Shown piece by piece: positions 12,536 through 61,132 of a DNA stretch of 64,000 nucleotides. The first letter of the stretch is position 1. Every line of letters begins with the position of its first letter. The position numbers were made by a program, and so were the translations under genes. This DNA is from Ranitomeya imitator (taxonomy: Eukaryota): positions 612,374,001 through 612,438,000 of the forward strand of contig NC_091283.1 in NCBI RefSeq assembly GCF_032444005.1, given 5' to 3'. The notes beneath the pieces were generated by a model. The model did not search any database. It was not told the origin of the DNA and worked only from the letters and a program-made list of their open reading frames with translations.

Positions 12536-12672
12536 TTAAATCACTCTCCTTGTCCCACTCCAAAGAAAAAGAAACATAAGCATATTTGGTATCACAGTAT
12601 CCGCAAAAGTCTAATCTAATGAAAATATAAAACGATTTCACTCGCACAGTTAACAAGGATGGAATAGTTTAA

Positions 12673-13308
12673 AGGGAACCTGTCACCCCGAAAATCGCAG
12701 GTGAGGTAATCCCACCGGCATCAGGGGCTTATCTGCAGCATTCTGTAATGCTGTAGATAAGCCCCCGATGTTATCTGAAAAAGGAGAAAAAGACGTTATA
12801 TTATACTCACCCAGGGGCGGTCCCGCTGCTGGTCAGGTCGGATGGGCGTCTCCGGTCCGCTCCGGCGCCTCCCATCTTCATTCCATGACGTCCTCTTCTG
12901 ATCTTCAGCCACGGCTCCGGCGCAGGCGTACTTTGCTCTGCCCTCTTGAGGGCAGAGGATAGTACTGCAGTGCGCAGGCGCCGGAAAGGTCAGAGGCCCG
13001 GCGCCTGCGCACTGCAGTACTTTGTCTGCCCTCAACAGGGCAGAGCAAAATACGCCTGCGCCGGAGCCGTGGCTGAAGATCAGAAGAGGACGTCATGGAA
13101 TGAAGATGGGAGGCGCCGGAGCGGACCGGAGACGCCCATCCGACCTGACCAGCAGCGGGACCGCCCCTGGGTGAGTATAATCTAACGTCTTTTTCTCCTT
13201 TTTCAGGTAACATCGGGGGCTTATCTACAGCATTACAGAATGCTGCAGATAAGCCCCTGATGCGGGTGGGATTACCTCACCCGCGATTTTCGGGGTGACA
13301 GGTTCCCT
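12673..13308. mobile_element. Fold-back Kolobok/T2 MITE (636 bp near-perfect palindrome)
   Basis: TTAA TSDs at 12669-12672 and 13309-13312. The arms pair almost throughout, with the centre near 12990; mirrored ORFs appear in the track. Confidence 0.9.
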
Positions 13309-13555
13309 TTAAATACCACATTTGCCATTTTCAGTTGCTGCACTCCCCCCCCCCCCCCCTCCACCCCCCCCAAAAAAAAAAAAACTATAAAATCTACAGC
13401 TCAGTGTGCAAAAAACAAGCCTTCATACAGCTCCAATAAAAAAACAAGTTCTCATATGGCTACATTGACAGAAATAGAAATTGAAAAAGTTATGGCTTCT
13501 TGGAAGATAAAGAGAAAAAAGCAAAAGCACAAAAAAAAAATGGCTACATCTTTAA

Positions 13556-18372: not shown

Positions 18373-18662
18373 ACAGCCTCTTACATCACACACTCAATAG
18401 AACACTAACACAAGTGAACAGGGGGGTTGTTTATTCAAAATAATTTCCCAAAATGCAAACTGTAAAGCACTACAGAATATGTTAGCGCTATCTAAAATAA
18501 AGATTATTATTATATTCTCACACCCATGTACAGTACAGACCAAAAGTTTGGACACACCTTCTCATTTAAAGATTTTTCTGTATTTTCAGGACTATGAAAA
18601 TTGTTAATTCACGCTGAAGGCATCAAAACTATGAATTAACACATGTGGAATTATATACTTAA

Positions 18663-19563
18663 AGGGAACCTGTCACCCCATTTTTTCAGTAGGAGATAAA
18701 AATACCGTTAAATAGGGCCTGAGCTGTGCTTTACAATAGGGTATTTTTTGTCCCCTGATTCCCTACCTATGCTGCCGAAATACCTTACAAAAGTGTCCTT
18801 TTTCGCCTGTCAATCAGGCTGGTCAGGTCAGATGGGCGTGGTCACAGCGCTGTTTCTCCCCCACATCTTGCTTATGTTCCCGTTGGTGGCGTAGTGCTTC
18901 TCGCATGCGCAAGTGCCGAATGCACTGCGCAGCTGTAGAAAAAGAGCGCGCTCGCCGCTATTCAGCGGTTTCTCGGTGGGCGCGGCCATCTTCCTGAGGC
19001 CGCGCTTGCGCAGATGGAGTCTCCTGCTTCCCGGGGCTTCAGGAAAATGGCCGCGGGATGCCGCGCGTGCGCAGATGGACATCGCGGCGGCCATTTTCCT
19101 GAAGCCGAGTTCGAATCTCGGCTTCAGGAAAATGGCCGCCGCGATGTCCATCTGCGCACGCGCGGCATCCCACGGCCATTTTCCTGAAGCCCCGGGAAGC
19201 AGGAGACTCCATCTGCGCACGCGCGGCCTCAGGAAGATGGCCGCGCCCACCGAGAAACCGCTGAATAGCGGCGAGTGCGCTCTTTTTCTACAGCTGCGCA
19301 GTGCATTCGGCACTTGCGCATGCGAGAAGCACTACGCCACCAACGGAAGCATAAGCAAGATGTGGGGGAGAAACAACGCTGTGACCACGCCCATCTGACC
19401 TGACCAGCCTGATTGACAGGCGAAAAATGCCACTTTTGTAAGGTATTTCGGCAGCATAGGTAGGGAATCAGGGGACAAAAAATACCCTATTGTAAAGCAC
19501 AGCTCAGGCCCTATTTAACGGTATTTTTATCTCCTACTGAAAAAACGAGGTGACAGGTTCCCT
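18663..19563. mobile_element. Fold-back Kolobok/T2 MITE (901 bp palindrome) inserted in the Tc1 left TIR
   Basis: TTAA duplicated at 18659-18662 and 19564-19567, whereas the right Tc1 TIR has a single TTAA at the equivalent site. Centre at about 19113. Confidence 0.93.
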
Positions 19564-20969
19564 TTAACAAAAAAGTGTGAAACAACTGAAAATATGTCTT
19601 ATATTCTAGGTTCTTCAAAGTAGCCACCTTTTGCTTTGATGATTGCTTTGCACACTCTTGGCATTCTCTTGATGAGCTTCAAGAGGTAGTCGCCGGGAAT
19701 GGTTTTCGCTTCACAGGTGTGCCCTGTCAGGTTTAATAAGTTGGATTTCTTGCCTTATAAATTGGGTTGGGACCATCAGTTGTGTTGTGCAGAAGTCTGG
19801 TGGATACACAGCTGATGAATAGACTGTTAAAATTTGTACTATGGCAAGAAAAAAGCAGCTAAGTAAAGAAAAATGAATGGCCATCATTACTTTAAGAAAT
19901 GAAGGTCAGTCAGTCCGAAAAATTGGGAAAACTTTCAAAGTGTCCCCAAGTGCAGTGGCAAAAACCATCAAGTGCTACAAAGAAACTGGCTCACATGAGG
20001 ACCGCCCCAGGAAAGGAAGACAAAGAGTCACCTCTGCTTCTGAGGATAAGTTTATCCAAGTCACCAGCCTCAGAAATCGCAGGTTTAGAGCAGCTCAAAT
20101 TAGAGACCAGGTCAATGCCACGCAGAGTTCTAGCAGCAGACACATCTCTACAACAACTGTTAAGAGGAGACTGTGCAGCAGGCCTTCATGGTAAAATAGC
20201 TGCTAGGAAACCACTGCTATGGACAGGCAACAAGCAGAAGAGACTTGTTTGGGCTAAAGAACACAAGTGTAACAACTCTGCTGGCATCACGGCATGGCCT
20301 CACATCTCTCACACAATCTTACCCACTGCTCCAGGCCATGATGTGGTTTCTGTTTCATGCCAGCTCCATGTTCTGTGTGTCTGCTCTGTGCATGCTTCAT
20401 GGCTATGTGTGTAGGGGGCCGGCGCCTGAACTCTCTGGTTCTTATAGGAATCAGGTGCATCTGTCTAATCAGTTCCTGACCAATTACCTAGAGGCCTCCT
20501 GTATATAGTGCAGCTCCACCCTGTGGTCTGGGCCTGTGCAACTTACTCCCTCAGTCAGTTCTTAGCTGCTGAGGTGCCAGGTCCTGTCTCGGTTACTCTC
20601 TCTTGTCTGCCACCCAGGGGGGCGTTGTACCCTGGTCTTAGTCCTGTGTAGCCACCCAGTGGGGCTTAGTACCCTGGCCTTTGTCTATGTCTCTGTCTCT
20701 TGTCTCGTTCCTGACTGTCTTAGTCTAGTCCTATTCCACTGTCTGTTTATATCTGTCTTGGTTTGCCTTTTCTGCTCTGTTCGCCACTGTCTGTGCTCTG
20801 CTTCTCTTTGCTCAGTTCTACCACAACCTGTGCTTCTGTGTCTCTCAGCTTTTCCCTCAGCTCTGCTCTCTGTAACCTTGCTCTGCACTCTGACCTTGCT
20901 TTACTCTCTGTGGCTTTGCTCTCTGCTCTGCACTCTGACCTTGCTTCACACTCTGTGGCTTTGCTCTGT

Positions 20970-30049: not shown

Positions 30050-32395
30050 GAGCACCACATAAAGACCCCCCACAGGCCACCCCAGAGCACGAGAATCTCA
30101 TTTACTCTAAACTGCAAAAACAGATATTTCATCAACCAAGGTATCATTGTGATCAGTCTAATGGTGTCAACCTGATACTGTCTGTAGTTTAATTGGAAAA
30201 ATCCTGCTCACAGGTCCCCTTTAAAAAGGAAGATGTCATGCACGCCCACGGCACTTTACAATAGTTTATGGGCTTCGTACTCACGGTCTAATGTCTCACA
30301 ACTTCCATAAACTACAGTGGAGCCGCAGACACTGAAGGTCAGCAGCCGGTCTACTGCCTACTCTTTTCTGAAAAGTTGAACTGGACTAGAGACCCCATTG
30401 CCCTGATGTAGGAGGCATCCAGAGAGGTCTACCCAGCGCACCATTGGAACTTACCAGTCCTAGCTCCTCAGCTGCGGACTACTACTCTTCTGTCTGAAGC
30501 TGCTCAATTATAATCACACAAGTATTTTTCTGTCCATATGGATGCGGGGCATCACAGGCTGCAGGTTGTATACTCCTGATCTAGCGCACGCGCAGTGACG
30601 TGTACTGGCCTCTCGCTGCACATGTGCCAAATGCCATCTGAGCTGCCAGGCCCGTCCATGAACTACGTTCTCCCGATGATAAGAGATTCATTTTAAAAGG
30701 TGATCGGCAAGAAGGAAAAAAAAATAAATCACTTTTTGGCTTTGTAAAATTGGAGAAACTGTTAGATAATATTGTATTGGAAGTTGCAAGACCACAACCT
30801 GGGCTGCTCTAGTCATAGGTTCCCATGATCATGTCCAAGTTTTCTTATCAGACAATTACACTACTTCTGTCAGCTTGCCTTCTCTCAATCCATACTAGTG
30901 CCATCTCTTCCCCAGGTAAGAAGCACACATTCCCATATGTCCGTCTCACATTGCACCATTGTCCAGTTTTGAAGTTCCAGCTCATTTTAATAATTTTTAT
31001 TTATGTAACACATTCGGCACCACTATAGAAGAGCGTGCAATCTTTGAAGAAAAAGTTAACACAAAAGGTAAAAAGTGCTGGTAGAGTCTGGTCCAGCCAT
31101 CTTTATAACAGAATTCATGTAAAGCTGCATGAACCAAGCACCTGTCAGAATCTGTATATGTCCAGATACAAAGGTACAGCGCACAGATGACGGTCTGTTT
31201 TTAACATTGCAAAGTATAGCGGAAGCTTTCTCATTTCTTTCTTATCCATACCGGAAAATGACTGATGACACCTGTACCGGTTTTTCATGTGCGTGTTTTA
31301 TATAGACATGTGAATGAGGCCTAAGAAAAATTAGCAAGTTCCAGTGAAAACCCTAGGTTAAAAAGGGGTTTCCAGTGAAAACAACTCATGGGCTTTACAT
31401 AACTGTTAAGCAATGAGTGTCTTACCGCTGGTTCCAATCTTGATAGGCAAAACGGATTTTTTTTTTCCTATTACAGAATGGAGTGGTAGGTCGGATGCCA
31501 GAGTGCCGCTCCATCCATTCTTTATTGGGCTTGCAGAAAAAGTCAAACACAGCACTCTGCAGTATCTTGGTCAAATGAATGGAGCACAGGTAGAGCATAA
31601 TCATTGCCAATCCATTCTAACAGGGCTAAAATTGTCCCATTCTGCCAATCAGTACAGGTCTCAGTAGTCACACTCTCATTAGCAAGAAGAAAAAAAAATT
31701 GAAAACGTTTTAAATGTAGAGGAGTTTGTTGAACACTGGCCAAAAGTTTCAGAGAGAACAACGGAAAAAGACACCACCCAAAACTAGATGGGTTCCTGTG
31801 TGCTGTAGACAAGAAGTTACATTCAACAGTACAAGGTTAGGAGAAGTCTCCTTCAGACAGGAGCAGAACAGACAGCAACTGGTTCAGTGATTTATGACAA
31901 ATGTGAAGTGGGAGATATATACTATTCACATATGAGCTGTTCATGGGAGGGAAAAAGGACGGAGGCGAATGGCGTACACTGCAGGTAAGAAAGACAGGCA
32001 AGTTTGAAAGAAAACATCTGTTAAAATGAAGATGAAATTAGTAAATATGGAAAGCCAATTTTGCAGCATATTTCTCATGTTAACAAGTTTGAGTATCTTG
32101 CCTAGAATACTTCTCTTAACTGCAAGATCATTGATACATACAGCACCCGGACAAAGATGATCGCTGCCCTCCTGTCTCCTCCAAGCTAAATCTCATTTTA
32201 GGCTCCTTCTGCACAAGTCACACTACATGAAAAGTCCTCACCCACTCTTCTAGCCACTCTAATACATCAACATATATCCCACTCCTCAACAGGTGCTATC
32301 ATTACAACCAATGTCATTCACTAGAATTGTCAGTGGTTTTAATGTTATTCAGAGTACATGCCTTATGAATAATGTCTAGAAAGTAAAACACTTTT

Positions 32396-32496
32396 ATTCG
32401 GACTCCCATGACAGCACACGAGAGAGGGGATCCGCCCTTAAGGAACAGGAAACCTACAGATACAAAAGGGCGGCACCTCTCCCCATGCATCAGTTG
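32396..32496 (+). repeat. DIRS left ITR
   Basis: Inverted match to 37857-37948; its start pairs with the first half of the ICR. Confidence 0.93.
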
Positions 32497-33099
32497 GTTT
32501 CCTGTTCCTGAAGGGACTGGATGCCTATAGATACTACAGGAGTCCAGGCCGGCCGGACCGATTCTGGTGGCGAGAGGGTCTCCCACTTCGGCCGGTGCGG
32601 GTACCTGAAGTAGTCACGGTGGCCCTGGCAGGGCGGCACGGCGGTGACTAGGCAGCGAGGAGCGGTCGCCAGGGGGTGTCCGGTCTCCGGGGCCAGCGTC
32701 TGGTAAGTCGCCCTTCCCGTGGGCTGTGGGTCTCTCTGGAGCAGGGGGGAGCGCGGCGGCATCTGGGGGGCGCCGATCGGATCGTAGCTGGCCGGCCTCG
32801 GCGTTCCACGAGAGCTGCAGCGCTGACAGGAAGCGCTGTAAGCTGTGGTGACGTCGGGGGGCGGAGCCAGCGACGTCTTCCGGATCGGTAAGCTCCTGCG
32901 CATGCGCGGGGGCTCCAAGATGGCGGCGCCCACCGGAGATCATGCCGCAATCCCTCCGGAGCGATGATTGATTCCCCACAGCTGCGGGGGGGCGGGAAAA
33001 TTAAACAAGCAAGCTGGGCAAGGTGCGCTGACCGAAGGAGGGGCCTTATAAGGCGGCTCCAGCAGCATGTTCCCGGGTTCTGGCTCCAATTTACTGAAA

Positions 33100-33258
33100 A
33101 TGGATTCAGATCAGGATCAGCAGGTTGTGCTGCTGGAACAAGCATCCCAGAGACCCAAGGAGAAGGAACATGAAAAAAGGAGCGATGGTTCGGGCCGCAG
33201 AAGCTCCTCCAGACAGGGGTCTGGAGGGTCAGTCAAAAAGGATCCCCCTCGTGCTTCG
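33100..33258 (+). CDS. Putative DIRS gag exon 1 (donor at 33259 or 33271)
   Basis: ATG 33100 (MDSDQDQQ...DPPRAS). Phase-0 donors TCG|GTATTT or GGT|GTGAGC; the unspliced frame stops at 33288. Confidence 0.55.
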
Positions 33259-33344
33259 GTATTTCTGGGTGTGAGCAGCCACTGGTAAGTGATCTTCGAG
33301 AAAGTTCACTTAGTGACTAGTCTCCCCTCATGTGTTTTATGCAG

Positions 33345-33452
33345 GGAAGGAAAAACGTCAGTAAGGCGAAGCATAGGGAATGTGCCATCTGCGGGGTTCC
33401 CTTGCCTGACTCACACCCTAAAAAACTATGTGACCCCTGTATCCAGCAGACG
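33345..33452 (+). CDS. Putative DIRS gag exon 2 (Cys4 zinc-finger-like)
   Basis: TTTTATGCAG|GGA...ACG|GTGAGG. Encodes GRKNVSKAKHRECAICGVPLPDSHPKKLCDPCIQQT (CxxC-x12-CxxC); phase 0 at both ends. Confidence 0.7.
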
Positions 33453-33527
33453 GTGAGGTTCTGGAAGGAGGGGACGGGGTATAGCATGTAGATTTTACAC
33501 TCTAGTCTACCTTACTTATCCCCGTAG

Positions 33528-34667
33528 GTAGCCGAAGAATCCTCCTCTATTACGGCCAGTCTCAAGGAGATGATTAGAATGGAGGTTAAAGAGTCCTTTA
33601 AAAACCTTTCACAGTCAGGAGGTTCTAGGCAGAGAACTGAGTGGGCATCGGATTCGTCTGTGGAAAAGGACAAGTCCGAAGAATCAGACAATTCAGCAGC
33701 ATCATCCTCCTCTTCGGAAGAAGACGCTGCTCGGTTTTGCCTACCCCTAGAAAGGATAGACAAATTGGTAAAGGCGGTCAGAGGCACAATGGGTATATCG
33801 GAACCCAAGCCTCAACTATCCAAAGAACAAATGATGTTCAGTGGATTGGAGCAAAAGAAGCGCAGAGTGTTTCCTTTAAATGAGAAAATACAAGATCTTA
33901 TTAATAGGGAATGGAGGAAACCTGAGAGAAAAGGCTCCTTACCACCTGCGCAAAAACGCCGATACCCTTTTGATGACCCAGCAGTAGGTAACTGGGAGAA
34001 AGCACCCAAGCTGGATGCAGCAATTGCCAAGGTAGCTAAACGATCTTCTCTCCCATTTGAAGATATGGGAACACTTAAAGACCCCCTGGATAGGAAAGTG
34101 GATACCTTCCTGAAGGGAACCTGGGAGATGGCAGCTGGCTCCTTAAGACCTGCGGTAGCTTCAACCTGCACGGCAAGGTCAATGATGGTCTGGCTGGACC
34201 AGTTGGAGACCCAATTAAAACAAGGGGCCTCTAGAGAGTCCATTCTCTCAGCATTACCTGTAATCCAGGAGGGGGCGGCTTTTTTATCAGACGCCTCAAT
34301 TGACTCCGTAAAGTTGGCAGCTAGAGCAGCAGGACTTTCTAATGCTGCAAGGAGAGCCCTATGGCTGAAATGCTGGCCGGGGGATATGCAGGCAAAAGCG
34401 AAGCTCTGCGCTATCCCTTGTAAAGGCGAATATTTATTTGGGCCTACCCTGGATGAACTCCTGGAGAAAGCAGGAGATGATAAGAAAAAGTTTCCCAACC
34501 TGTTCAATCCATACCGTCGTCCCTTCAACAAAAGAAGGTTCAACCGGGGAGGAAAGCGAGCCTTTTCACCAGGGAGAGATCGTCCCAGATGGGAGGATAG
34601 GCGAAAGCGAGGTACAGGTCTCATGTTTCGCCGTAACCAGACGGAAAATAAAAAACAAGACCAATGA
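33528..34667 (+). CDS. DIRS gag-like ORF1 (main exon, 379 aa)
   Basis: Acceptor CCCCGTAG|GTA GCC GAA is in frame with track ORF 33570. Typical vertebrate DIRS ORF1 features: acidic Ser-rich linker, WEKAPKLDAAIAK, RRALWLKCW, YLFGPTLD, basic C-terminus. Confidence 0.88.
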   Translation, partial: VAEESSSITASLKEMIRMEVKESFKNLSQSGGSRQRTEWASDSSVEKDKSEESDNSAASSSSSEEDAARFCLPLERIDKLVKAVRGTMGISEPKPQLSKEQMMFSGLEQKKRRVFPLNEKIQDLINREWRKPERKGSLPPAQKRRYPFDDPAVGNWEKAPKLDAAIAKVAKRSSLPFEDMGTLKDPLDRKVDTFLKGTWEMAAGSLRPAVASTCTARSMMVWLDQLETQLKQGASRESILSALPVIQEGAAFLSDASIDSVKLAARAAGLSNAARRALWLKCWPGDMQAKAKLCAIPCKGEYLFGPTLDELLEKAGDDKKKFPNLFNPYRRPFNKRRFNRGGKRAFSPGRDRPRWEDRRKRGTGLMFRRNQTENKKQDQ

Positions 34668-36560
34668 CTGGCAATTCCAGTGGGAGGGAGACTATTGCAT
34701 TTCTCGGCAGAGTGGTCGAAAATCACAAACAGCGTTTGGATAAAAGACACTGTTTCCCATGGTCTCAAGCTGGAATTTGTTCATATTCCACAGGACAAAT
34801 TTAGGTTAACACCCTGGCGCTCATCTCCCACTGAACAATTCGCCCTAGAAGAGGAAGTGAGGACTCTTTGTTCCAAAAATGTTTTGGTAGAAGTGCCGTA
34901 TTCTCATGCAGGGGAAGGGTTTTACTCTCCCCTGTTCCTAATCCAGAAGCCTGATAAATCTTACAGGACCATTATAAATCTTAAGGGTCTCAATAAGTTT
35001 TTGGTGAAACATACTTTCAAAATGGAGTCCATCAATTCGGCAATAAAAATGCTTTTCAACAACTGTTTCATGGTAGTAGTGGATTTGAAAGATGCCTACT
35101 ATCATGTACCCATTCATGCTGATTTCCAACGATACCTGAGGGTAGCGATACTAATGGGGGGTAGGATTCGACATTTTCAATTCAGAGCGCTCCCCTTTGG
35201 GATCACCTCGGCACCTAGGGTGTTTACTAAAATAATTGCGGAAGTTATGGCGCATTTAAGAGAGTCAAATATCCTTATAGTCCCCTACTTAGACGATTTC
35301 CTCATTGTAGGTAACTCGGTAGATCATTGTCTGTCACAATGGGAGATTGCTAAAACCAAACTAGAACGGTTGGGTTGGATCATAAACTTTGAAAAATCTA
35401 AATTACAGCCCCTAAATGTTCAAAAATTCCTGGGGTTAATGTTGAATTCAGTGACACAGCAGTGTCTCCTCCCTATAGAGAAAATGGACCAAATTCAGAG
35501 TTTTGTATTAAGAGCAATCAATACACCTTCCATGACACTTAGGCAAGCAATGTCTCTACTTGGGTCACTCACATCTTGCATCCCAGCAGTTAAGTGGGCT
35601 CAGTTCCACACCAGGTCCCTACAAAATGAAGTCCTGTTCCATGACAGAGCCTTAGGAGGCGCATTGAATGGAAAATTGACATTGAGGCCGATAACATTGA
35701 ATTCCCTTAGATGGTGGCTAGATAAACAAAATTTATCAGCAGGGGTTCCCTGGATGATAGATGTCACCCACGTGATAACCACGGATGCCAGCTCTTCAGG
35801 GTGGGGAGCCTATATGGGAGACATGGTGGTCCAGGGACAGTGGGAACCCTTCACAACATTTTCATCAAATCAAAGAGAGTTGTTGGCGGTTGAACTGGCT
35901 GTTAAAAAATTCCTCGTATATCTGCAGGGCCAGCACGTCAGAATTCTGTCGGACAACAGAGTGGCGGTCGCTTACATAAACCGGCAAGGGGGAACTCGTT
36001 CCGAAACTTTAATGCAGATCACGGATCGGTTGTTCCAGGTGGCAGAGCTCAATTTTCTATCTTTGACAGCTCTTCACATCAAAGGAAAAGAAAATGTGGC
36101 AGCAGATTTCCTCAGCCGAAATGTGTTAAAACAGGGAGAGTGGTCTCTCAACGAGGACATTTTCAATCTTGTCGTCCGCAGATGGGGTCAACCAGTGGTG
36201 GATCTATTCGCCACCAGAAACAACAGAAAAGTAAAACTTTTTTGCTCCCTAAATCCCAGGGAGAATCCCCTGGCGGTAGACGCGTTTCTCATAAAATGGG
36301 ATTTTCCACTAGCCTATGCTTTCCCACCACTGAACCTGATACCTCTAGTGGTGAGGAAAATCAGGGAGGATCGAGCGAAAGTCATCCTTATCGCCCCCTT
36401 TTGGCCCAGAAGAACCTGGTTTGCCTGGCTCAAGACAATGTCTGTAGCGGTCCCCTGGGTACTGCCAGAGATCCCGAACTTGCTTTCGCAGGGACCGATC
36501 TCCCATCCACAAGTGACGGGGCTCCATTTGACGGCATGGTGTTTGAACGGTCACTATTAA
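34668..36560 (+). CDS. DIRS pol: reverse transcriptase, RNase H and DAM-methyltransferase-like domain
   Basis: RT: YSPLFLIQK, VDLKDAYYH, ALPFGITSAPRVF, YLDD. RNase H: TTDASSSGWG, RELLAV, SDN, AADFLSR. MT-like: VDLFAT, AYAFPP. No internal stops. Confidence 0.95.
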   Translation: MAIPVGGRLLHFSAEWSKITNSVWIKDTVSHGLKLEFVHIPQDKFRLTPWRSSPTEQFALEEEVRTLCSKNVLVEVPYSHAGEGFYSPLFLIQKPDKSYRTIINLKGLNKFLVKHTFKMESINSAIKMLFNNCFMVVVDLKDAYYHVPIHADFQRYLRVAILMGGRIRHFQFRALPFGITSAPRVFTKIIAEVMAHLRESNILIVPYLDDFLIVGNSVDHCLSQWEIAKTKLERLGWIINFEKSKLQPLNVQKFLGLMLNSVTQQCLLPIEKMDQIQSFVLRAINTPSMTLRQAMSLLGSLTSCIPAVKWAQFHTRSLQNEVLFHDRALGGALNGKLTLRPITLNSLRWWLDKQNLSAGVPWMIDVTHVITTDASSSGWGAYMGDMVVQGQWEPFTTFSSNQRELLAVELAVKKFLVYLQGQHVRILSDNRVAVAYINRQGGTRSETLMQITDRLFQVAELNFLSLTALHIKGKENVAADFLSRNVLKQGEWSLNEDIFNLVVRRWGQPVVDLFATRNNRKVKLFCSLNPRENPLAVDAFLIKWDFPLAYAFPPLNLIPLVVRKIREDRAKVILIAPFWPRRTWFAWLKTMSVAVPWVLPEIPNLLSQGPISHPQVTGLHLTAWCLNGHY

Positions 36561-37570
36561 TGGGAAAAGGCTTCTCTCCAAACTTGGTGGAGACGCTCCT
36601 AAAGAGTAGAAAGCAAATAACTACGAAAATCTACTCTAGGACTTGGAGAAAGTTCTTGTCTTGTTCAAAGTTTAATATCCAAGACGGGGTGCCAGTACAA
36701 CAAATCCTAGAGTTCCTACAAAAGGGGTTCGAGTTGAAACTCTCTCCTAGTACCCTTAGGGTACAGGTCTCAGCTTTAGGTGCCCTGTTTTCCTGTAATA
36801 TAGCGAATAACTACTGGATAGCGAGGTTTATGAAGGCAGTTAGTAGATCTACACCACTGCATAAAGACAGAACAGTTCCATGGGATTTAAATTTAGTTCT
36901 GTCCTCTCTAACTAAACCCCCCTTTGAACCTCTGCAGGAGGCCTCGATCAAAATGTTGACACTTAAGACAGCCTTCCTGATCGCCATAACCTCAGCTCGC
37001 AGGATAGGGGATATACAGGCACTTTCCAGAGCTCCTCCATACACTGAAATCTTGTCAGACAGAGTAGTCCTTAGACCAGACCCAGCATATCTGCCAAAGG
37101 TGGCGACACGGTTCCATAGATCACAGGAGATAGTTTTGCCGTCCTTTATTCCTAATCCCTCTAATCCTAAAGAGCAGGAGCTTCATACGTTAGACGTCAG
37201 GAGATCTCTTCTTCAGTATATTTCAGCTACTGATAATTGGAAGAAGGATGGGGCACTGCTTCTTTCCTTCCAAGGTCCAAAGAAAGGATTTAGAGTATCG
37301 AAATATTTACTGGCTAAATGGATTAGGGAAACTATCTCTCTAGCTTATACAGCAGGTGGGGGGCCAGCTCCGCAGAACCTAAAGGCACATTCCACCCGGG
37401 CCATGGCGTCATCCTGGGCAGAAAGATCTGGAGTGTCAGTGGAGCAGATATGTAAGGCGGCCACATGGTCATCCCCTTCCACTTTCTTTAAACACTATCG
37501 GTTGGATTTGGGGTCCTCCTCTGATCTTTCCTTTGGGTTAAGGGTGCTACAATCTATAGTCCCTCCCTAA
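36140..37570 (+). CDS. DIRS tyrosine recombinase (YR); functional start likely near 36492-36560
   Basis: Catalytic set TSARRIGD (R), AHSTRA (HxxR), ATW...FFKHY (W/Y). The first 421 nt overlap pol in another frame. Confidence 0.93.
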   Translation: MVSQRGHFQSCRPQMGSTSGGSIRHQKQQKSKTFLLPKSQGESPGGRRVSHKMGFSTSLCFPTTEPDTSSGEENQGGSSESHPYRPLLAQKNLVCLAQDNVCSGPLGTARDPELAFAGTDLPSTSDGAPFDGMVFERSLLMGKGFSPNLVETLLKSRKQITTKIYSRTWRKFLSCSKFNIQDGVPVQQILEFLQKGFELKLSPSTLRVQVSALGALFSCNIANNYWIARFMKAVSRSTPLHKDRTVPWDLNLVLSSLTKPPFEPLQEASIKMLTLKTAFLIAITSARRIGDIQALSRAPPYTEILSDRVVLRPDPAYLPKVATRFHRSQEIVLPSFIPNPSNPKEQELHTLDVRRSLLQYISATDNWKKDGALLLSFQGPKKGFRVSKYLLAKWIRETISLAYTAGGGPAPQNLKAHSTRAMASSWAERSGVSVEQICKAATWSSPSTFFKHYRLDLGSSSDLSFGLRVLQSIVPP

Positions 37571-37591
37571 GGTAGCTTACATCTCTGTAAA

Positions 37592-37675
37592 TCTCTCGTG
37601 TGCTGTCATGGGAGTCCGAATAAAGCATTAAGCTACTTACTGGTAGCGGCATTTTTCGGAGGCCCATGACAGCAC
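37592..37675 (+). repeat. DIRS internal complementary region (ICR)
   Basis: TCTCTCGTGTGCTGTCATGGGAGTCCGAAT-AAA-GCATTAAGCTACTTACTGGTAGCGGCATTTTTCGGAGGCCCATGACAGCAC is the reverse complement of the left end plus the right end. Confidence 0.93.
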
Positions 37676-37856
37676 CCTTAGTTCCCTCCCTATTCACGTG
37701 GGGGTAGCACTTCCTGATATGTATATAGCGTAATATGTAAATCTCACGTATGGTGTCTTATTACAATAATGGGTTATTTTGTTTCAAATGTATATAATGT
37801 ATATATTGTATATTTGTGTACCACTAACCGCGGCAGTCCTCTCAGGCTCTGAAATA

Positions 37857-37986
37857 CAACTGATGCATGGGGAGAGGTGCCGCCCTTTTGTATCTGTAGG
37901 TTTCCTGTTCCTTAAGGGCGGATCCCCTCTCTCGTGTGCTGTCATGGGCCTCCGAAAAATGCCGCTACCAGTAAGTAGCTTAATGC
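37857..37986 (+). repeat. DIRS right ITR with 3' extension
   Basis: 92-bp inverted core plus a 38-bp extension that pairs with the second half of the ICR. Confidence 0.93.
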
Positions 37987-38594
37987 TTTTTCCGTTCATT
38001 GTGATTTTTTGCTTTGAACCTTACATCAGTATTACAAATTGGGTTACACAACAGTTTCCTATAAAGATGTAGTCATTATTAGTACAATAGAATATCGCCA
38101 TCTACTGGTGAGAATATACAATAGCTGCTGAACTATTTCTGCACTGAATCCCTAGATGTTTGGAAGATAATGAGTTAACAACCAGTACACGCTCCAGCAG
38201 GCAAGTGTTAACAAGGTAGTTATGAGGGTGACAACTACATTTCTCCAAGGATGTTGGCTTTGTCAGCAGCATAGAAATAGTAATGGTGTGTTTCCTACCA
38301 GATCTAGGGTGGTGCTGGTGAGAAGCTGGGGAAATTTATAACCAGGCATTAGCTTTTAGACGGCAGGTTTAATAAACACGTTTTGAAAGGTTTGTGGTTT
38401 CCAGAAAATTTGAACATATCTGGTTATGTTTTTTTCTTCTTGAAAAGCTATGGTAAAAAGTTATGTATTGGGAATATAGTCATAGGTCTTGACGAAAACG
38501 AGAAGATCAGTCTTGGTGGTATCTTTAATGGTACATTGAATTGAGGACAGTCTGGTCCAGATGATCAGAACGTGGTCATGGCACAAGTGCCCAT

Positions 38595-42575: not shown

Positions 42576-43409
42576 CCGGGATTGGCATCTGCACCGTCGC
42601 AGCTACAGCCACAAAATTTTGCACAGTCACACGTCTGGACCCGAGAGCGTCATAGGCTATGTTGTGAGGTGAAATTTTAACCCCGCGCTTTCCAATTCAC
42701 CAAACAATTTTGCCCTTATCTACATAATGGGAAAAAATGAAAGGAAAAGTGTAGGAGGCAAATTGACAGCTGCCAGATGTGAACAAGGGGGACTTAAAGA
42801 ATGAGAGCGATGGCGCCAAAGAGTATATACCGTACAGTTGCTAAGGTGGGGCCCTGACATGGGATACTCACCACACACGGGGATATGAACACACACACAA
42901 AATGCGCCACACACTACCACGTGCTTGAACACATATTACCCTCAGCACACATTTCACCACAAATACACCAACCTCGCCACATAAAAGTCGAAACACAAAA
43001 GTCGCCGCTCAAAACTCGCCACGCGCAGAACTCGCCACATGCAAAACTAGGCTCTTGCAAAACTCACCACAAGTGCAAAACTCACCTCATGGAAAACTCG
43101 CCATGCGCAAAACTTGCTGCACACAACTTGCTACACTAACCTGTCACATGCAACTCAACACACAAAAAGTTGCTACACGCATGTTGCCACACAAAACTCA
43201 TCTCACAAAAGTCGCTACATGCATGTCGCCACACGCAACTCAACACACACAACTTGACAAACGAAACTCGCCCTAAAACACACACAAGTCTGGTATTATC
43301 CTTCAAAAATAAAAATCTGATTAATAAGCAGACAAACTACAACAAATGTACCATATAGGAAATACGGCAGCTGTCAGTCACATGACCTGTCTATGTGTGA
43401 GCTAATATA

Positions 43410-45015
43410 CAGTGGGGCAAAAAAGTATTTAGTCAGTCAGCAATAGTGCAAGTTCCACCACTTAAAAAGATGAGAGGCGTCTGTAATTTACATCATATGT
43501 AGACCTCAACTATGGGAGACAAAATGAGAAAAAAAAATCCAGAAAATCACATTGTCTGTTTTTTTAACATTTTATTTGCATATTATGGTGGAAAATAAGT
43601 ATTTGGTCAGAAACAAACAATCAAGATTTCTGGCTCTCACAGACCTGTAACTTCTTCTTTAAGAGTCTCCTCTTTCCTCCACTCATTACCTGTAGTAATG
43701 GCACCTGTTTAAACTTGTTATCAGTATAAAAAGACACCTGTGCACACCCTCAAACAGTCTGACTCCAAACTCCACTATGGTGAAGACCAAAGAGCTGTCA
43801 AAGGACACCAGAAACAAAATTGTAGCCCTGCACCAGGCTGGGAAGACTGAATCTGCAATAGCCAACCAGCTTGGAGTGAAGAAATCAACAGTGGGAGCAA
43901 TAATTAGAAAATGGAAGACATACAAGACCACTGATAATCTCCCTTGATCTGGGGCTCCACGCTAAATCCCACCCCGTGCGGTCAGAATGATCACAAGAAC
44001 GGTGAGCAAAAATCCCAGAACCACGCGGGGGGACCTAGTGAATGAACTGCAGAGAGCTGGGACCAATGTAACAAGGCCTACCATAAGTAACACACTACGC
44101 CACCATGGACTCAAATCCTGCAGTGCCAGACGTGTCCCACTGCTTAAGCCAGTACATGTCCGGGCCCGTCTGAAGTTTGCTAGAGAGCATTTGGATGATC
44201 CAGAGGAGTTTGGGGAGAATGTCCTATGGTCTGATGAAACCAAACTGGAACTGTTTGGTAGAAACACAACTTGTCGTGTTTGGAGGAAATAGAATACTAA
44301 GTTGCATCCATCAAACACCATACCTACTGTAAAGCATGGTGGTGGAAACATCATGCTTTGGGGCTGTTTCTCTGCAAAGGGGCCAGGACGACTGATCCGG
44401 GTACCTGAAAGAATGAATGGGGCCATGTATCGTGAGATTTTGAGTGCAAACCTCCTTCCATCAGCAAGGGCATTGAAGATGAAACGTGGCTGGGTCTTTC
44501 AACATGACAATGATCCAAAGCACACCGCCAGGGCAACGAAGGAGTGGCTTCGTAAGAAGCATTTCAAGGTCCTGGAGTGGCCTAGCCAGTCTCCAGATCT
44601 CAACCCTATAGAAAACCTTTGGAGGGAGTTGAAAGTCCGTGTTGCCAAGCGAAAAGCCAAAAACATCACTGCTCTAGAGGAGATCTGCATGGAGGAATGG
44701 GCCAACATACCAACAACAGTGTGTGGCAACCTTGTGAAGACTTACAGAAAACGTTTGACCTCTGTCATTGCCAACAAAGGATATATTACAAAGTATTGAG
44801 ATGAAATTTTGTTTCTGACCAAATACTTATTTTCCACCATAATATGCAAATAAAATGTTAAAAAAACAGACAATGTGATTTTCTGGATTTTTTTTTCTCA
44901 GTTTGTCTCCCATAGTTGAGGTCTACCTATGATGTACATTACAGACGCCTCTCATCTTTTTAAGTGGTGGAACTTGCACTATTGCTGACTGACTAAATAC
45001 TTTTTTGCCCCACTG
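43410..45015 (+). mobile_element. Full-length Tc1 transposon (1606 bp)
   Basis: TA TSDs (43408-43409, 45016-45017) and 208-bp TIRs differing at about 3 positions. Confidence 0.96.
43777..44799 (+). pseudogene. Tc1 DD34E transposase, 340 codons, three nonsense mutations and no frameshift
   Basis: ATG 43777. In-frame stops at TGA 43945, TAA 43963 and TAG 44290. Motifs [15 protein letters not shown] and SPDLNPIE, with 34 residues between the second D and E. Confidence 0.93.
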
Positions 45016-45104
45016 TATACTGCCAGGGGGAGGGCTTCCTGTTGGCTGGGGATTTATCAGGCTGCCAATTTAGCTTACAAATACTGAGCAAATAACGTGT
45101 GAAC

Positions 45105-50117: not shown

Positions 50118-50965
50118 CTCCAACCCTAACCCCAACACACCCCTAACCCTAATCCCAACCCGATCCATAATCCTAATCACTAACCCTAACGATAATCACA
50201 ACCCTTACCCCAAAACAACCCTAATGTCAACCCTAACCATAACCCTAATCAAAACCCTAAATCCAACACACCCCTAATCCTAATCTCAACCCTAACCTCA
50301 AACCTAACCCTAATCCCAATACACCCCTAATCCCAAACCTAACCCTAATCCCAAGCGTAACCCTAATGCCAACCCTAACCCTAATACCAACCCTAATCCA
50401 ATCCCTAACCCTAATCCCAACTCCAACCCTAACCCTAGCCCTAAGGCTACTTTCACACTTGCGTTGTTTGGCATCCGTCGCAATCCGTCGTTTTGGACAA
50501 GAAACGGATCCTGCAAATGTGCCCGCAGGATGCGTTTTTTGCCCATAGACTTGTATTGCCGACGGATCGTGACGGATGGCCACACGTCGCGTCCATCGTG
50601 CACTGGATCAGTGTTTTGGTGGACCGTCAGCACAAAAAAAGTGCAATGTAACTTTTTTTGTACGTCGCATCCGCCATTTCTGACCTCGCATGCGTGGCCG
50701 TAACTCCGCCCCCTCCTCCCCAGGACATAGATTGGGCAGCGGATGCGTTGAAAAACTTCATCCGCTGCCCACGTTGTGCACAATTTTCACAACGTGCGTC
50801 AGTATGTCGGGCCGATGCATTGCGACGGCCCCGTACCGACGTAAGTGTGAAAGAAGCCTAACCCTAAATTTAGCGCCAACCCTAACTCTAAATTTAGCCC
50901 CAACCCTAACCCTAAATTTAGCCCCAACCCTAACCCTAAATTTAGCCCCAACCCTAATTTTAGCC
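50118..50965. repeat. Degenerate telomere-like (CCCTAA)n array split by a MITE
   Basis: AACCCT/AATCCC hexamers at 50118-50444 and 24-bp AACCCTAAATTTAGCCCCAACCCT-type units at 50859-50965. Confidence 0.85.
50445..50858. mobile_element. PIF/Harbinger-like MITE
   Basis: TAA|GGCTACTTTCACACTTGCG...CGTAAGTGTGAAAGAAGCC|TAA. Confidence 0.88.
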
Positions 50966-51849
50966 CCAACTGCTCTTCTCCTGCCGGCCGGCAGATGGAG
51001 ACAGATGGCGGGCGCACTGCGCATGCGCACGCCAATTTCTTTTGCCGGCGGCCAGGAGGAGCAGCAGGAGGACCCAGGGACACAGGTGAGTATGATAGGG
51101 TCCCCGAATCCCCCTATTTCTCTGTCCTCTGATGTGCGATCACATCAGAAGACAGAGAATTACACTTTGACTTTTTTTTTTTTGCGATCGCCGGTAAACA
51201 GTTAATTACCGGCGATTGCAAAACAGGGGTCGGTAAAACCGACCGCGATCATGCTCTTTGGGGTCTCGGCTACCCCCGGCAGCCGAGACCCCAAAGATTC
51301 TAACGGGGCCGGCCGGCGGGCGCACTGCGCATGAGCCCGCCATTTTGAAGATGGCGGCGCCCACCAGGAGCCACGAGGAGCACCGGGGGAGATGGGTATT
51401 GGGGGGCTACCTGGGACCCCTTTTCTCTGTCCTCCGATGTGCGATCAGATCGGAGGACAGAGAAATTAAAAAGAGATCGCGTTTTTTTTTGCGATCGCCG
51501 GTAAACGGTTAATTACCGGCGATCGCAAATGCGGGGTGGGTTAAAAAACCCCCGAATCATGTTCTCTGGGGTCTTGGCTACCCCCGGCAGCCGAGACCCC
51601 GGAGAAAATCCGACTCTGGGGGGCGCTATTCACTTTTTCCACAGCGCTGTTAATTAACGGCGCTGTGGTTTAAGTACCCTTAGCGGCCGCCGTTAAAAGG
51701 CGTATCGGCGGTCGCTAAGGGGTTAAGGATGAGCCCCTACTCATGGGCCACTGCTATGTGCTTGCCCCCCAGGCCAAAATTTGCCAGTCAGCCCCTGCCC
51801 AGGTGGATGAGCATAGAGCAACTGGGCGAGCTGGAATCAAGTTTTTATA

Positions 51850-56788: not shown

Positions 56789-57712
56789 TTAGAGTATGTG
56801 CAAATGTTTAGTAAGAAAAAAAAATCTGCAAAAACCAGAGCATTGGCAGGAAAAACACTGCGTAAAATATGCGCGATTTGATGCATTTTTCATTTCCATT
56901 TTTTTCAATTGGTGAAAAATCCTGTAAAAATGCAGAAAGAATTGACAGAGATAAACCCTTAGGTAAAACAGGTTACTTGCATTTTTTTCATTGCGTTTAA
57001 TGCATTTATAGCATTTTTTAGTCTCTTTGGTGTGTCATGCTTTAAATAAAGCCGCTTTGTTTTTTGATACTTCCCGGTTTTTGGCTTTGGTACAGTCATG
57101 TGCGGATTACATGCGTTCATACTGTGTTACTGCAGCGGATACGCACTAAAAATGCACGTGCGTTCTTTACCTGCAGATTTTCCACATCTAATGCAAGTCT
57201 ATTGGAAAAATCTGCACAGAAAACTCAGCATACCCGTAAGAGAAACTGAAATGTTGCGGATTTCAACCAGGTCAGTTTACGTGGAGTAAGAAAAAAAAAG
57301 AAAAGCACAGCAGACCAGAGATCTCTATGAATCCCATCCAGTTTGCTGGTACTGTAAGACGTTGCGTTATTATGTGCAATGTCAAGAATCATCATGGGAG
57401 CTTATCCTCACACAGCCAATACCGAGTCCAACTCATGCGAACGGAGCTGGATCTAATCGCAGCAGTTTAACCTCTTCGATATAATTGATGATAGCGGCAT
57501 TACTGTGATTATGAGAAGCCTTACTTGCATTTTTGCATGGGCTTTTGATGCGTTTTTCCCATTCATTAGTATGTGTAACATCTGCAGCAAATATGCAGAA
57601 AGAATTGACAAGCTGCAGATTTAAACCTGCAATGAAAAAACGTGTGCACAGACCCTTTATGGCCTCTGGTATATTTTCCCTCTACAGCCACCAACATCAA
57701 TAAGTTCTACGT

Positions 57713-59300
57713 ATTTATCTGGAGGGTTATGAGCAGGTGTGTGGTTTCGGCTGCCCTTTATCTGGAGGGTATGCGCAGGTGTATGGTCTCGGCTGCCCTT
57801 TATCTGGTGGGTATGCGCAGGTGTATGGTCTCGGCTGCTGTTTATCTGGAGGGTATGAGCAGGTGTGTGGTCTCGGCTGCCATTTATCTGGTGGGTATGA
57901 GCAGGTGTGTGGTCCCGGCTGCCCTTTATCTGGTGGGTATGAGCAGGTGTGTGGTCTCGGCTGCCATTTATCTGGTGGGTATGAGCAGGTGTGTGGTCTC
58001 GGCTGCCGTTTATCTGGTGGGTATGAGCAGGAGTGTGGTCTCGGCTGCCGTTTATCTGGTGGGTATGAGCAGGTGTGTGGTCTCGGCTGCCGTTTATCTG
58101 GAGGGTATGAGCAGGTGTGTGGTCCCGGCTGCCATTTATCTGGTGGGTATGAGCAGGTGTGTGGTCTCGGCTGCCGTTTATCTGGTGGGTATGAGCAGGA
58201 GTGTGGTCTCGGCTACCGTTTATCTGGTGGGTATGAGCAGGTGTGTGGTCTCGGCTGCCGTTTATCTGGTGGGTATGAGCAGGTGTGTGGTCTCGGCTGC
58301 CGTTTATCTGGTGGGTATGAGCAGGCGTGTGGTCTTGGCTGCCATTTATCTGGTGGGTATGAGCAGGCGTGTGGTCTCGGCTGCCATTTATCTGGTGGGT
58401 ATGAGCAGGTGTGTGGTCCCGGCTGATGTTTATCTGGTGGGTATGAGCAGGTGTGTGGTCCCGGCTGCCATTTATCTGGTGGGTATGAGCAGGTGTGTGG
58501 TCTTGGCTGATGTTTATCTGGTGGGTATGAGCAGGTGTGTGGTCCCGGCTGCCATTTATCTGGTGGGTATGAGCAGGTGTGTGGTCTCGGCTGCCATTTA
58601 TCTGGTGGGTATGAGCAGGTGTGTGGTCCCGGCTGCCCTTTATCTGGTGGGTATGAGCAGGTGTGTGGTCTCGGCTGCCATTTATCTGGTGGGTATGAGC
58701 AGGTGTGTGGTCTCGGCTGCCGTTTATCTGGTGGGTATGAGCAGGAGTGTGGTCTCGGCTGCCGTTTATCTGGTGGGTATGAGCAGGTGTGTGGTCTCGG
58801 CTGCCGTTTATCTGGAGGGTATGAGCAGGTGTGTGGTCCCGGCTGCCATTTATCTGGTGGGTATGAGCAGGTGTGTGGTCTCGGCTGCCGTTTATCTGGT
58901 GGGTATGAGCAGGTGTGTGGTCTCGGCTGCCGTTTATCTGGTGGGTATGAGCAGGCGTGTGGTCTCGGCTGCCATTTATCTGGTGGGTATGAGCAGGCGT
59001 GTGGTCTCGGCTGCCATTTATCTGGTGGGTATGAGCAGGTGTGTGGTCCCGGCTGATGTTTATCTGGTGGGTATGAGCAGGTGTGTGGTCCCGGCTGCCA
59101 TTTATCTGGTGGGTATGAGCAGGTGTGTGGTCTTGGCTGATGTTTATCTGGTGGGTATGAGCAGGTGTGTGGTCCCGGCTGCCATTTATCTGGTGGGTAT
59201 GAGCAGGTGTGTGGTCTTGGCTGCCATTTATCTGGTGGGTATGAGCAGGTGTGTGGTCTCGGCTGCCATTTATCTGGTGGGTATGAGCAGGTGTGTGGTC
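57713..59300. repeat. 42-bp minisatellite, about 38 copies, in CENPX intron 2
   Basis: Unit GTTTATCTGGTGGGTATGAGCAGGTGTGTGGTCTCGGCTGCC; 14-aa periodicity in the ORF track. Confidence 0.95.
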
Positions 59301-59305
59301 CTTAC

Positions 59306-59357
59306 TTTTAGTCTTCTCTTCTTCTAGGTGCATGTGCAGCAGTTTGGAGACTAGGCT
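59306..59357 (-). CDS. CENPX: CENPX exon 2 (52 nt)
   Basis: TTTCTTACAG|...|GTAAGG. Encodes SLVSKLLHMHLEEEKTK versus human ELVSRLLHLHFKDDKTK. Confidence 0.94.
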
Positions 59358-59889
59358 CTGTAAGAAAAAGAGTGGCCATTAACCCCATCAGGACCAGCCC
59401 CTATTTATGCGGAGTTATTAGTCCCAGCTTTATAGACGGATATTGTTGGGAAGTGCTTGTAAAAAACATATGCTGTTTTTTGAGACCTTAACATTTGTTT
59501 TGTTTATGGCTCATCTAGGAGACCGACCACCGCTGCTATCTAGCCTACAAGTTTTTCTCCTAGGCAACATAAACAAAACAAGTGATGATACCTCTTTTTC
59601 CCCTGTGTCAGGGCTTGTTATCCTTGGTATCATATGTTGGGTCATTTTGTGAGAGGTCTGAATGACGCTTTCATTAGTGGGCACCTCCATCTACACCAAA
59701 GTTTGCGGCGCGCAACGTGCGCCGTGGCAAATTTTAGGCCACGCCTCTGACCACACCCATTCATAGCTAGTCACACTCATATCCACGTCCCAACCACACC
59801 CATTTAGCACTGCTGATCACACTGTTTCATAAAGAATAATTATAAACAAAAAAATATGGCCACACAGTGCTCCATACTGTATAATCGCT

Positions 59890-60750
59890 CCGTACACCCC
59901 ATACACACACGCGGCTCCGCTCCGTCCACCCCATGCACACACGCGGCTCCGCTCCGTCCACCCCATGCACACACGCGGCTCCGCTCCGTCCACCCCATGC
60001 ACACACGCGGCTCCGCTCCGTCCACCCCATGCACACACGCGGCTCCGCTCCGTCCACCCCATGCACACACGCGGCTCCGCTCCGTCCACCCCATGCACAC
60101 ACGCGGCTCCGCTCCGTCCACCCCATGCACACACGCGGCTCCGCTCCGTCCACCCCATGCACACACGCCGCTCCGCTCCGTCCACCCCATGCACACACGC
60201 CGCTCCGCTCCGTCCACCCCATGCACACACGCCGCTCCGCTCCGTCCACCCCATGCACACACGCGGCTCCGCTCCGTCCACCCCATGCACACACGCGGCT
60301 CCGCTCCGTCCACCCCATGCACACACGCGGCTCCGCTCCGTCCACCCCATGCACACACGCGGCTCCGCTCCGTCCACCCCATGCACACACGCGGCTCCGC
60401 TCCGTCCACCCCATGCACACACGCGGCTCCGCTCCGTCCACCCCATGCACACACGCGGCTCCGCTCCGTCCACCCCATGCACACACGCGGCTCCGCTCCG
60501 TCCACCCCATGCACACACGCGGCTCCGCTCCGTCCACCCCATGCACACACGCGGCTCCGCTCCGTCCACCCCATGCACACACGCGGCTCCGCTCCGTCCA
60601 CCCCATGCACACACGCGGCTCCGCTCCGTCCACCCCATGCACACACGCGGCTCCGCTCCGTCCACCCCATGCACACACGCGGCTCCGCTCCGTCCACCCC
60701 ATGCACACACGCGGCTCCGCTCCGTCCACCCCATGCACACACGCGGCTCT
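59890..60750. repeat. 32-bp CpG-rich minisatellite, about 27 copies, in CENPX intron 1
   Basis: Unit GCGGCTCCGCTCCGTCCACCCCATGCACACAC; nearly invariant. Confidence 0.95.
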
Positions 60751-61132
60751 GCTACATCCACACTGTAAACACCGATCATGTGACCCCTGACTCCTCCCCT
60801 CCTGTGACCTCATCACAGGTCCTGTGCGCACAGAGCAGCCAATATGTGGTGTAAGGCTCTGCGGGTGCAGGGATGACCGGCTGATACATTGCACACCTCC
60901 CAACCAGTGCGGGACATACTTGTCCTGGCCGTGACAGCGGGAGAGACAAAATCGTGACAGTCCCGCTGGATCCGGGACGGTTGGGAGGTATGCCGGGTAA
61001 TTTTTAAGCCATCACGTACGCAGTATTCAGTGTCAGAACACACACTTCATGGCGGGACATACAGACGCACCACGCACAGAACTTTATACTCAGTAAGCAC
61101 CTCCATGAGAAGGGACGCAATGTTACACTTGC

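Follow-up and report, generated by a model that had tools for sequence, protein, structure and literature searches.

Within a 64,000-nucleotide (nt) stretch of the genome of Ranitomeya imitator (NCBI RefSeq assembly GCF_032444005.1, contig NC_091283.1, positions 612,374,001 to 612,438,000 of the forward strand; this whole stretch is referred to here as the window), positions 32393-37989 hold what its sequence features identify as an intact DIRS1-like tyrosine-recombinase (YR) retrotransposon, in which gag and pol share one reading frame and are separated by a single TGA. We observed this frame relationship directly, along with the distribution of frames among relatives, the contexts of their stops and the fixation of the layout in the window's family. 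We put the chances at slightly better than even that low-level read-through of an inherited, leaky UGA-C stop now gives Gag-Pol in this family, the recombinase probably being reached by a splice.

What follows is our inference from these observations; it covers read-through and how often it happens, the sequence in which the changes arose, and the splice into YR. Most ribosomes would terminate at CAA-UGA-C and release Gag, while a few percent would read through to make Gag-Pol. The weak stop would have been inherited from an ancestral DIRS1 element in which gag and YR formed one frame across it, read-through giving a Gag-linker-YR protein, with pol nested in the +1 frame. For the window's family, we suppose that the distance from the stop to the VGGRL motif of pol went from 3n+1 to 12 nt, which would lead read-through into pol, and that the upstream portion of the former YR frame decayed; YR would now probably be reached by splicing, with a phase-1 donor in gag and an acceptor close to 35927. 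Since a weak stop was already present, read-through would be the most economical frame-0 route into pol. Read-through of a stop between gag and pol is known in other retroelements.

The gag-pol junction and its fixation in the family

The gag open reading frame (ORF; 33528-34667) terminates at CAA TGA (34665-34667) and pol (34668-36560; 630 codons) follows in the same frame, this TGA being the sole frame-0 stop from 34600 to the end of pol. The first Met of pol is residue 119 (35022) and lies inside the RVT_1 match, which starts at residue 92, such that pol opens with 118 codons that lack an ATG. These positions agree with the initial annotation, which had described a single TGA between gag and pol in one frame and a first pol ATG behind the start of the reverse transcriptase (RT). 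It had also argued that some bypass of the gag stop is required, and given an in-frame pol without an early ATG, this holds.

For the family check, 4 of 24 listed runs, with RNA status guessed, were compared with the window as contigs; none of the runs listed as carrying the element is recorded as RNA, which has no bearing on expression. A contig from a DNA-type run covers 34609-34763 with 0 differences at a word depth of 851.6 (depth is not a copy number), and rare deletion joints in the same run have depths of 7-19, with one at 231. Likewise, runs X2 and X7 cover 34431-34763 with 0 differences, and two sister contigs (~91% alike, with 32 and 19 differences) span the junction with 0 gaps. None of the 8 listed indels falls at the junction; the substitutions shown are 40 of 386, a sample that leaves room for rare changes within the stop. 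Gene model P0169, which is 97% identical, starts at the ATG overlapping the stop and keeps the same spacing through the GG codons, indicating that an independent copy has the same stop-to-GG distance. The high-depth contig without differences, the sister contigs and P0169 rule out that the stop is a lesion of one copy, and the single-stop, same-frame layout is family-wide.

The recombinase frame bears the marks of an old change. Over 413 codons of pol, the YR frame contains 22 stops (shuffle mean 20.1), while its last 217 pol-overlapping codons contain none (2000 shuffles gave a mean of 10.8 and never fewer than 4), suggesting that entry into YR shifted to near 35906 long ago. Since pol is intact over 630 codons although the overlapping frame is saturated with stops, the layout appears to be old and pol to have been kept, and a pol that stayed intact needs a frame-0 route to it. 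The first AG past the last YR-frame stop, at 35927, is in phase 1 and thereby matches both gag donors considered below (34612 and 34426), an agreement that chance alone would give one time in three. This suggests that Gag-YR probably arises by splicing, with one of these donors paired to an acceptor close to 35927.

Frames and stop contexts in relatives

We compared the window with 80 metagenome loci, which together form 69 clusters with pol 31-39% identical. A first metagenome scan with a single protein query gave no matches, and a viral scan added one distant locus (L081) that was excluded from all counts. Loci were placed with a profile, a strict motif search having located only about half of them; the 21 of 69 clusters that were unclear were excluded from class statistics. 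Pol lies +1 to gag in 23 clusters and -1 in 16 plus 1 mixed cluster, is fused to gag in 5 and is in frame 0 in 3. L069 was dropped as a frame-0 case for its further stops, and the true single-stop frame-0 clusters are therefore 2 of the 48 classified, the window and L065. The latter is an independent case, in which gag ends at TAA-C with 60 nt to go to the Val codon; its sister (L063) is +1 and its own YR frame is still fully open, so that its change looks recent or like an assembly slip.

Past the single gag stop, the gag frame is stop-free along pol in all 23 of the +1 clusters. This gag/YR frame runs on for 662-1142 codons, except in four clusters where it is still open when the contig stops, and it holds the YR domain in 18; three others have no YR match and in two YR is displaced. 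Elsewhere the gag frame is open along pol in 4/17 of the -1 class and 0/5 of the fused clusters. Across the spacer triplets of the +1 class, stops number 0/478 in the gag/YR frame and 0/478 in the pol frame, versus 24/455 in the third frame (p 2e-8). Clusters such as L003, L007, L023, L030 and L068 carry gag, a weak stop and a YR ORF of up to ~1000 codons in one frame.

The stops themselves differ between the classes. Gag stops of the +1 class are TGA in 19/23 (TGA-C in 14, followed by CTA in 6) and TAG-G in 4/23, and UGA-C and UAG-G are the type II and type III read-through contexts (PMC3159437, PMC4615788). TGA-C and TAG-G together account for 18/23 of these stops, compared with 0/17 of the -1 gag stops (p 3e-7), none of which is TGA, and with 4/20 of the pol stops of the same elements (p 2e-4); the clusters are related, which makes the p values optimistic. 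A stable fold 3' of the stop (z < -2) is present in 9/23 of the +1 class versus 1/17. We read these patterns as pointing to selection, in the +1 relatives, that favors ribosomes continuing from gag past its stop into YR. A frog-gag profile in its second round recognized 12/23 of their upstream ORFs as gag, including two that had served as seeds, and matched 0 reversed controls; Pfam LAP2alpha matched weakly in 2/23, and the ORFs beyond the profile's 12 were called gag by position and length.

For pol entry in these distant +1 relatives, a +1 shift at the weak stop would be the most straightforward account, such a stop being a place where termination competes with read-through and with shifting (PMC9841425), as they do in the +1 shift of antizyme OAZ1 at UCC-UGA. 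The parallel is limited to the relatives' presumed pol entry; in the window the +1 frame closes at 34741. TCC, CCC or TTT precedes the stop in 9/23 clusters and a pol-frame ATG lies nearby in 9/23. In three clusters the +1 frame opens only 11-22 codons before the stop, and the proposal that selection holds this frame open upstream was not borne out in the +1 class (84 codons versus 86 in synonymous shuffles, 0/23 at p<0.1, a test of low power). TGAC as a branch point was likewise rejected: the first AG falls 0-93 nt past the stop in mixed phases, and acceptors are not enriched (1/23 at p<0.1).

Two smaller patterns fall outside the +1 class. In the -1 clusters (L012, L017, L024, L035, L067 and L079 among them), the pol frame is open upstream for 58 codons versus 10 in shuffles, in 15/17, making a -1 frameshift a candidate mechanism for this clade. 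Eight loci with a short pol/YR overlap (L014, L029, L035, L050, L058, L067, L072 and L076) have a pyrimidine-rich YAG of common phase 24-72 nt past the last YR-frame stop, which suggests that this clade may obtain its recombinase via splicing.

The frog relatives resemble the distant +1 class. Among 48 new gag hits, 25 end 95-108 residues past the RRxLW motif, where the window has 105. Aligning the pol leaders of these relatives, as protein, with each of the three frames of the window gave no informative signal (+1 z no higher than 1.7). In a dual-frame test of the 25 gag ends against 39 pol leaders, scored as mismatches over 21, the +1 frame fits 10/39 leaders at 0-3 mismatches (four gag partners), while +2 never falls below 9 and frame 0 never below 7, the two best frame-0 fits being gene models in which gag runs into pol. 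Nine of the ten fitting leaders are gene models with a gag-pol join and the tenth, P0034, is pol alone. The stops inferred for the frog relatives (TAG, TAA and TGA) stand 7-16 nt ahead of the Val codon, the distance always being 3n+1. With the window's YR ORF as query, 18 of the top 63 matches have at least 900 residues, many of them 940-960. Compared with pol in the overlapping frame, YR shows 0/40 mismatches for P0244/P0032 and 1/40 for P0267/P0042. For two frog families at least, YR therefore extends across pol in a frame that is also that of gag.

In a quick tree of 66 pols, the window falls within sets of 11, 14 and 16 rows (SH-aLRT 97, 98 and 99) whose other members are frog proteins. 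Given this nesting among +1 frog proteins, the same-frame state of the window's family would be derived. The initial annotation had named a different gag/pol frame in related copies as one part of what would speak against its two mechanisms; relatives do differ, being mostly +1, and the bypass in the window's own family survives that finding.

We regard the comparative result as more interesting than the junction itself: for most of the DIRS1 relatives examined, what lies beyond a weak stop of this kind is the recombinase. A single frame of gag, stop and YR with pol nested at +1 may be the general DIRS1 expression layout, and under the model, read-through would be expected to yield the recombinase in most DIRS1 elements but pol in the window's family. 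Published accounts describe three ORFs with a variable pol/YR overlap, and the covered parts of them describe no translation mechanism (PMC3266345, PMC9210276, PMC7192593, PMC5633606); those of PMC8547959 and bioRxiv 2021.04.08.439009 hold nothing further on DIRS translation. A literature search, outside whose coverage the papers by Goodwin and Poulter (2001, 2004, 2005, 2015) fell, found no account of read-through in DIRS. Within that coverage, the translation of pol and recombinase from overlapping, mostly ATG-less ORFs is unaddressed. The shared gag/YR frame may already be noted by Goodwin and Poulter.

Routes from gag into pol

The window's stop has AA on its 5' side, C at +4 and U at +5, and the next triplet is CUG. 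Basal read-through of UGA-C was 3-4% in one study (PMC4615788), and UGA-CUA alone gave 2% read-through in cells (PMC3159437). Type II signals (UGA-CUA/CGG in alphaviruses, UGA-CUAG in mammals) share with the window UGA-C-U, 5' adenines and a downstream polymerase, whereas the window has CUG and lacks a 3' stem-loop. The gammaretroviral gag-UAG-G-pol arrangement, with an in-frame stop that sets the Gag:Gag-Pol ratio, has its counterpart in the TAG-G stops of the +1 relatives; unlike it, the window has UGA rather than UAG, no pseudoknot was found and the order of the element is different. Tca2 of Candida albicans is likewise a retrotransposon with gag-UGA-pol in one frame, although of the long terminal repeat (LTR)/copia kind. 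Read-through at UGA-CUG, one of two mechanisms put forward by the initial annotation, is the better of the pair, but the window's junction is not a textbook type II signal.

Several points weigh against read-through into pol. The triplet after UGA is CUG and not CUA or CGG, so that the type II sequence is absent, and UA at +5/+6 matters for read-through (PMC9841425); the effect of the 5' AA is disputed (PMC9841425). No 3' stem-loop was found over 60-150 nt (z 0.08, -0.66 and -0.99), though 9 of the 23 +1 relatives have such a fold, and Rfam gave no match. The flanks of the Tca2 stop gave no read-through in yeast (PMC2194720). The inferred stops of the frog relatives include TAA, the tree behind the derived state is only a quick one, and the distant loci are no closer in pol than the identities given above. 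Among the 35 of the 40 shown differences (386 listed) that were translated, 9/12 in gag are synonymous and only 4/7 in non-overlapped pol, a weak point. Finally, the element appears to contain real gag introns, the AG at 34680 is phase-compatible with two gag donors, and in 19 gene models of relatives, with uncertain RNA backing, a single recurring splice links gag with pol.

A broader possibility, which we hold tentatively and as clearly less probable than the reading above, is that the DIRS1 gag stop is an ancient three-way switch: termination would yield Gag, read-through Gag-recombinase with a linker of ~650 codons over pol, and a +1 shift Gag-Pol. The frog family would then have swapped two of these outputs by a one-base change in spacing and obtained its recombinase by a splice. 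If true, such a switch would explain why a long, domain-free YR overlap is kept in DIRS1 elements, and the window's family would offer a natural case of a recoding signal re-pointed to another enzyme.

The next contender, to which we give roughly one chance in five, is alternative splicing that removes the stop by joining either 34612 or the GC site 34426, both of them phase-1 donors in gag, to the AG at 34680, such that Gag-Pol resumes at VGGRL. As the initial annotation had noted, 34612-34680 is a GT..AG segment of 69 nt whose removal joins G+TG in frame; the 34426-34680 join is in frame as well. Of the two gag introns, to whose size it had likened this segment, the second (33453-33527) has homology behind it, and the first has an uncertain donor. 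By the same crude scores that give the homology-backed intron 7/9 and 13/17, donor 34612 matches U1 at 5/9 and acceptor 34680 has 9/17 pyrimidines, a value equalled by 41% of the element's 421 AGs, with an A-rich stretch upstream and a putative branch A only 13 nt off. The AG at 34680 is formed by Pro-Val codons, and Pro precedes VGG in 18/26 clusters, encoded by CCA in 9, CCT in 4, CCG in 3 and CCC in 2. Across relatives, therefore, it is not the AG but the amino acid that is kept, as expected if the spacer is translated, and splicing would remove it.

Of 15 joints in the four runs, none has GT..AG or GC..AG ends, and the gag-pol junction is present in contigs in its unspliced form, a result without a positive control. 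Run X7 covers 32871-34372 gapless, leaving the gag introns likewise unspliced with no junction contig for gag intron 2, and with RNA status guessed this result weighs only weakly against splicing. On these grounds the 69-nt intron is disfavored, and the GC donor join is at least as likely. The family majority has G at 34430, nearer the donor consensus (2135 of 2726 depth in run X18), and the 19 frog gene models join a C-x-G/E donor homologous to 34426 to the +1 pol frame. Splicing into pol in the frog relatives is a serious alternative. The window lacks the AG that those models apparently use, having TAC CGT at that place as far as the acceptor position can be deduced from proteins; acceptors are unenriched in the distant +1 relatives, and the models are possibly ab initio. 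Three sister-family models exit gag at the site equivalent to 34612, and no two of them share an acceptor. If read-through is correct, intron-bridged annotations of the gag-pol junction may be artefacts.

It is unlikely that pol starts alone, whether by reinitiation or near-cognate initiation at CUG 34668 or GUG 34680 or from an internally promoted transcript. The CUG lies immediately 3' of the stop and a TGGGA stands 75 nt upstream (34590). TGGGA resembles the restart signals of caliciviruses. Here, however, it is a Trp-Glu codon pair, and Trp-Glu/Asp is not kept in all relatives. Tca2 provides a precedent in its minor junction promoter (PMC2194720), and an independent start would be indifferent to frame and so suit the varied layouts. 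Against this, the overlapping ATG at 34664 belongs to the YR frame, where it opens a run of 46 codons before a stop, while in the +1 relatives the pol frame is open across the whole spacer, with a nearby ATG in the minority of clusters counted above. Less probable still is that the family makes no RT of its own and is mobilized in trans by +1 families, its same-frame state being a fixed lesion: DIRS-1 RT can act in trans (PMC7192593) and related families are numerous, but pol is intact over a frame saturated with stops and the ~91% sister subfamily keeps the spacing.

The element and the surrounding window

The coordinates of the element's parts are collected in Table 1. Its terminal repeats are of the DIRS1 kind, with 126-nt inverted arms that are 91% complementary, and its internal complementary region matches the element ends over 33 nt and 54 nt that share the 3-bp junction AAA. 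Like DIRS-1 of Dictyostelium and the Xenopus families, it has inverted terminal repeats, such a 3-bp junction, TTT ends, a LAP2alpha gag, RT and RNase H, and YR at -1 over pol (PMC9210276, PMC3266345); it departs from usual DIRS1 elements in having pol in the gag frame behind one stop, a short YR overlap and gag introns. Pfam recognizes LAP2alpha in gag (5.5e-18) and RVT_1 (3.8e-21) and RT_RNaseH (1.9e-07) in pol. A methyltransferase may follow RNase H; Pfam gives no match there, and the C-terminus of pol can be aligned with those of relatives. The third ORF falls below the cut-off for Phage_integrase (E 0.093) and has 733 relatives at E<=1e-30. It contains an HSTRA motif and a downstream Tyr, which we take to be tyrosine-recombinase marks. 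The closest named proteins are those of dendrobatid frogs, one at 97% identity, and many related families occur in dendrobatid annotations.

Table 1. Features of the DIRS1-like element and of its gag-pol junction (positions in the window)
Feature	Positions	Strand	Basis
Complete DIRS1-like element, 5,597 bp, TTT at both ends	32393..37989	+	sequence features
Left inverted terminal repeat	32394..32519	+	91% complementary to 37834-37959
Probable gag exon 1, ATG 33100	33100..33258	+	presumed; donors 33259 or 33271 frame-compatible, strong donor 33285 not
gag exon 2, CxxC..CxxC finger	33345..33452	+	homology, site scores
gag intron 2, 75 nt, with in-frame TAG	33453..33527	+	donor 7/9, acceptor 13/17 pyrimidines; homology-supported
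gag main exon, LAP2alpha domain	33528..34667	+	ORF and Pfam
Open +1 frame across gag end; pol leader in relatives, closes here at 34741	34369..34743	+	frame comparison
Phase-1 GC donor at 34426	34423..34431	+	homologue of donor used in relatives' gene models
Candidate intron of the initial annotation, weak sites, unsupported	34612..34680	+	site scores, contigs, conservation
CAA-TGA-CTG, gag stop in leaky-type context, in frame with pol	34662..34670	+	context per PMC4615788, PMC3159437
pol: RT, RNase H, probable methyltransferase; begins LAIP-VGGRL; no ATG before 35022	34668..36560	+	ORF and Pfam
Decayed 5' part of recombinase frame, 22 stops within pol	34634..35905	+	shuffle mean 20.1
Candidate acceptor, AG 35926-35927, 11/17 pyrimidines, phase 1 in YR frame	35909..35927	+	presumed
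Tyrosine recombinase ORF, -1 relative to pol	35906..37570	+	ORF, homology, shuffles
Internal complementary region, halves overlapping on AAA (37622-37624)	37592..37675	+	complementarity
Right inverted repeat and right extension	37834..37989	+	complementarity

The interruption of gag by two small introns within 33100-33527 is unusual for a retrotransposon; in the Logan-derived relative P0143, the first appears to be present and the second not. The 5' leader contains two strong-looking donors, at 32703 (8/9) and 32889. Position 36560 is G in all four runs, giving TAG as the family's pol stop and GTG where this copy has the overlapping YR ATG.

Elsewhere in the window, the RNase H region of a different DIRS pol survives as a decayed fragment at 387-955 (36-39% identical). 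Long, near-perfect inverted repeats at 18659-19567, 12668-13313 and 43406-45019, with arms of 451, 289 and 212 nt, are probably DNA transposons resembling miniature inverted-repeat transposable elements. Tandem arrays with units of 42 nt and 32 nt occupy 57599-59400 and 59726-60921, respectively, and telomere-like repeats are found at 50229-50986.

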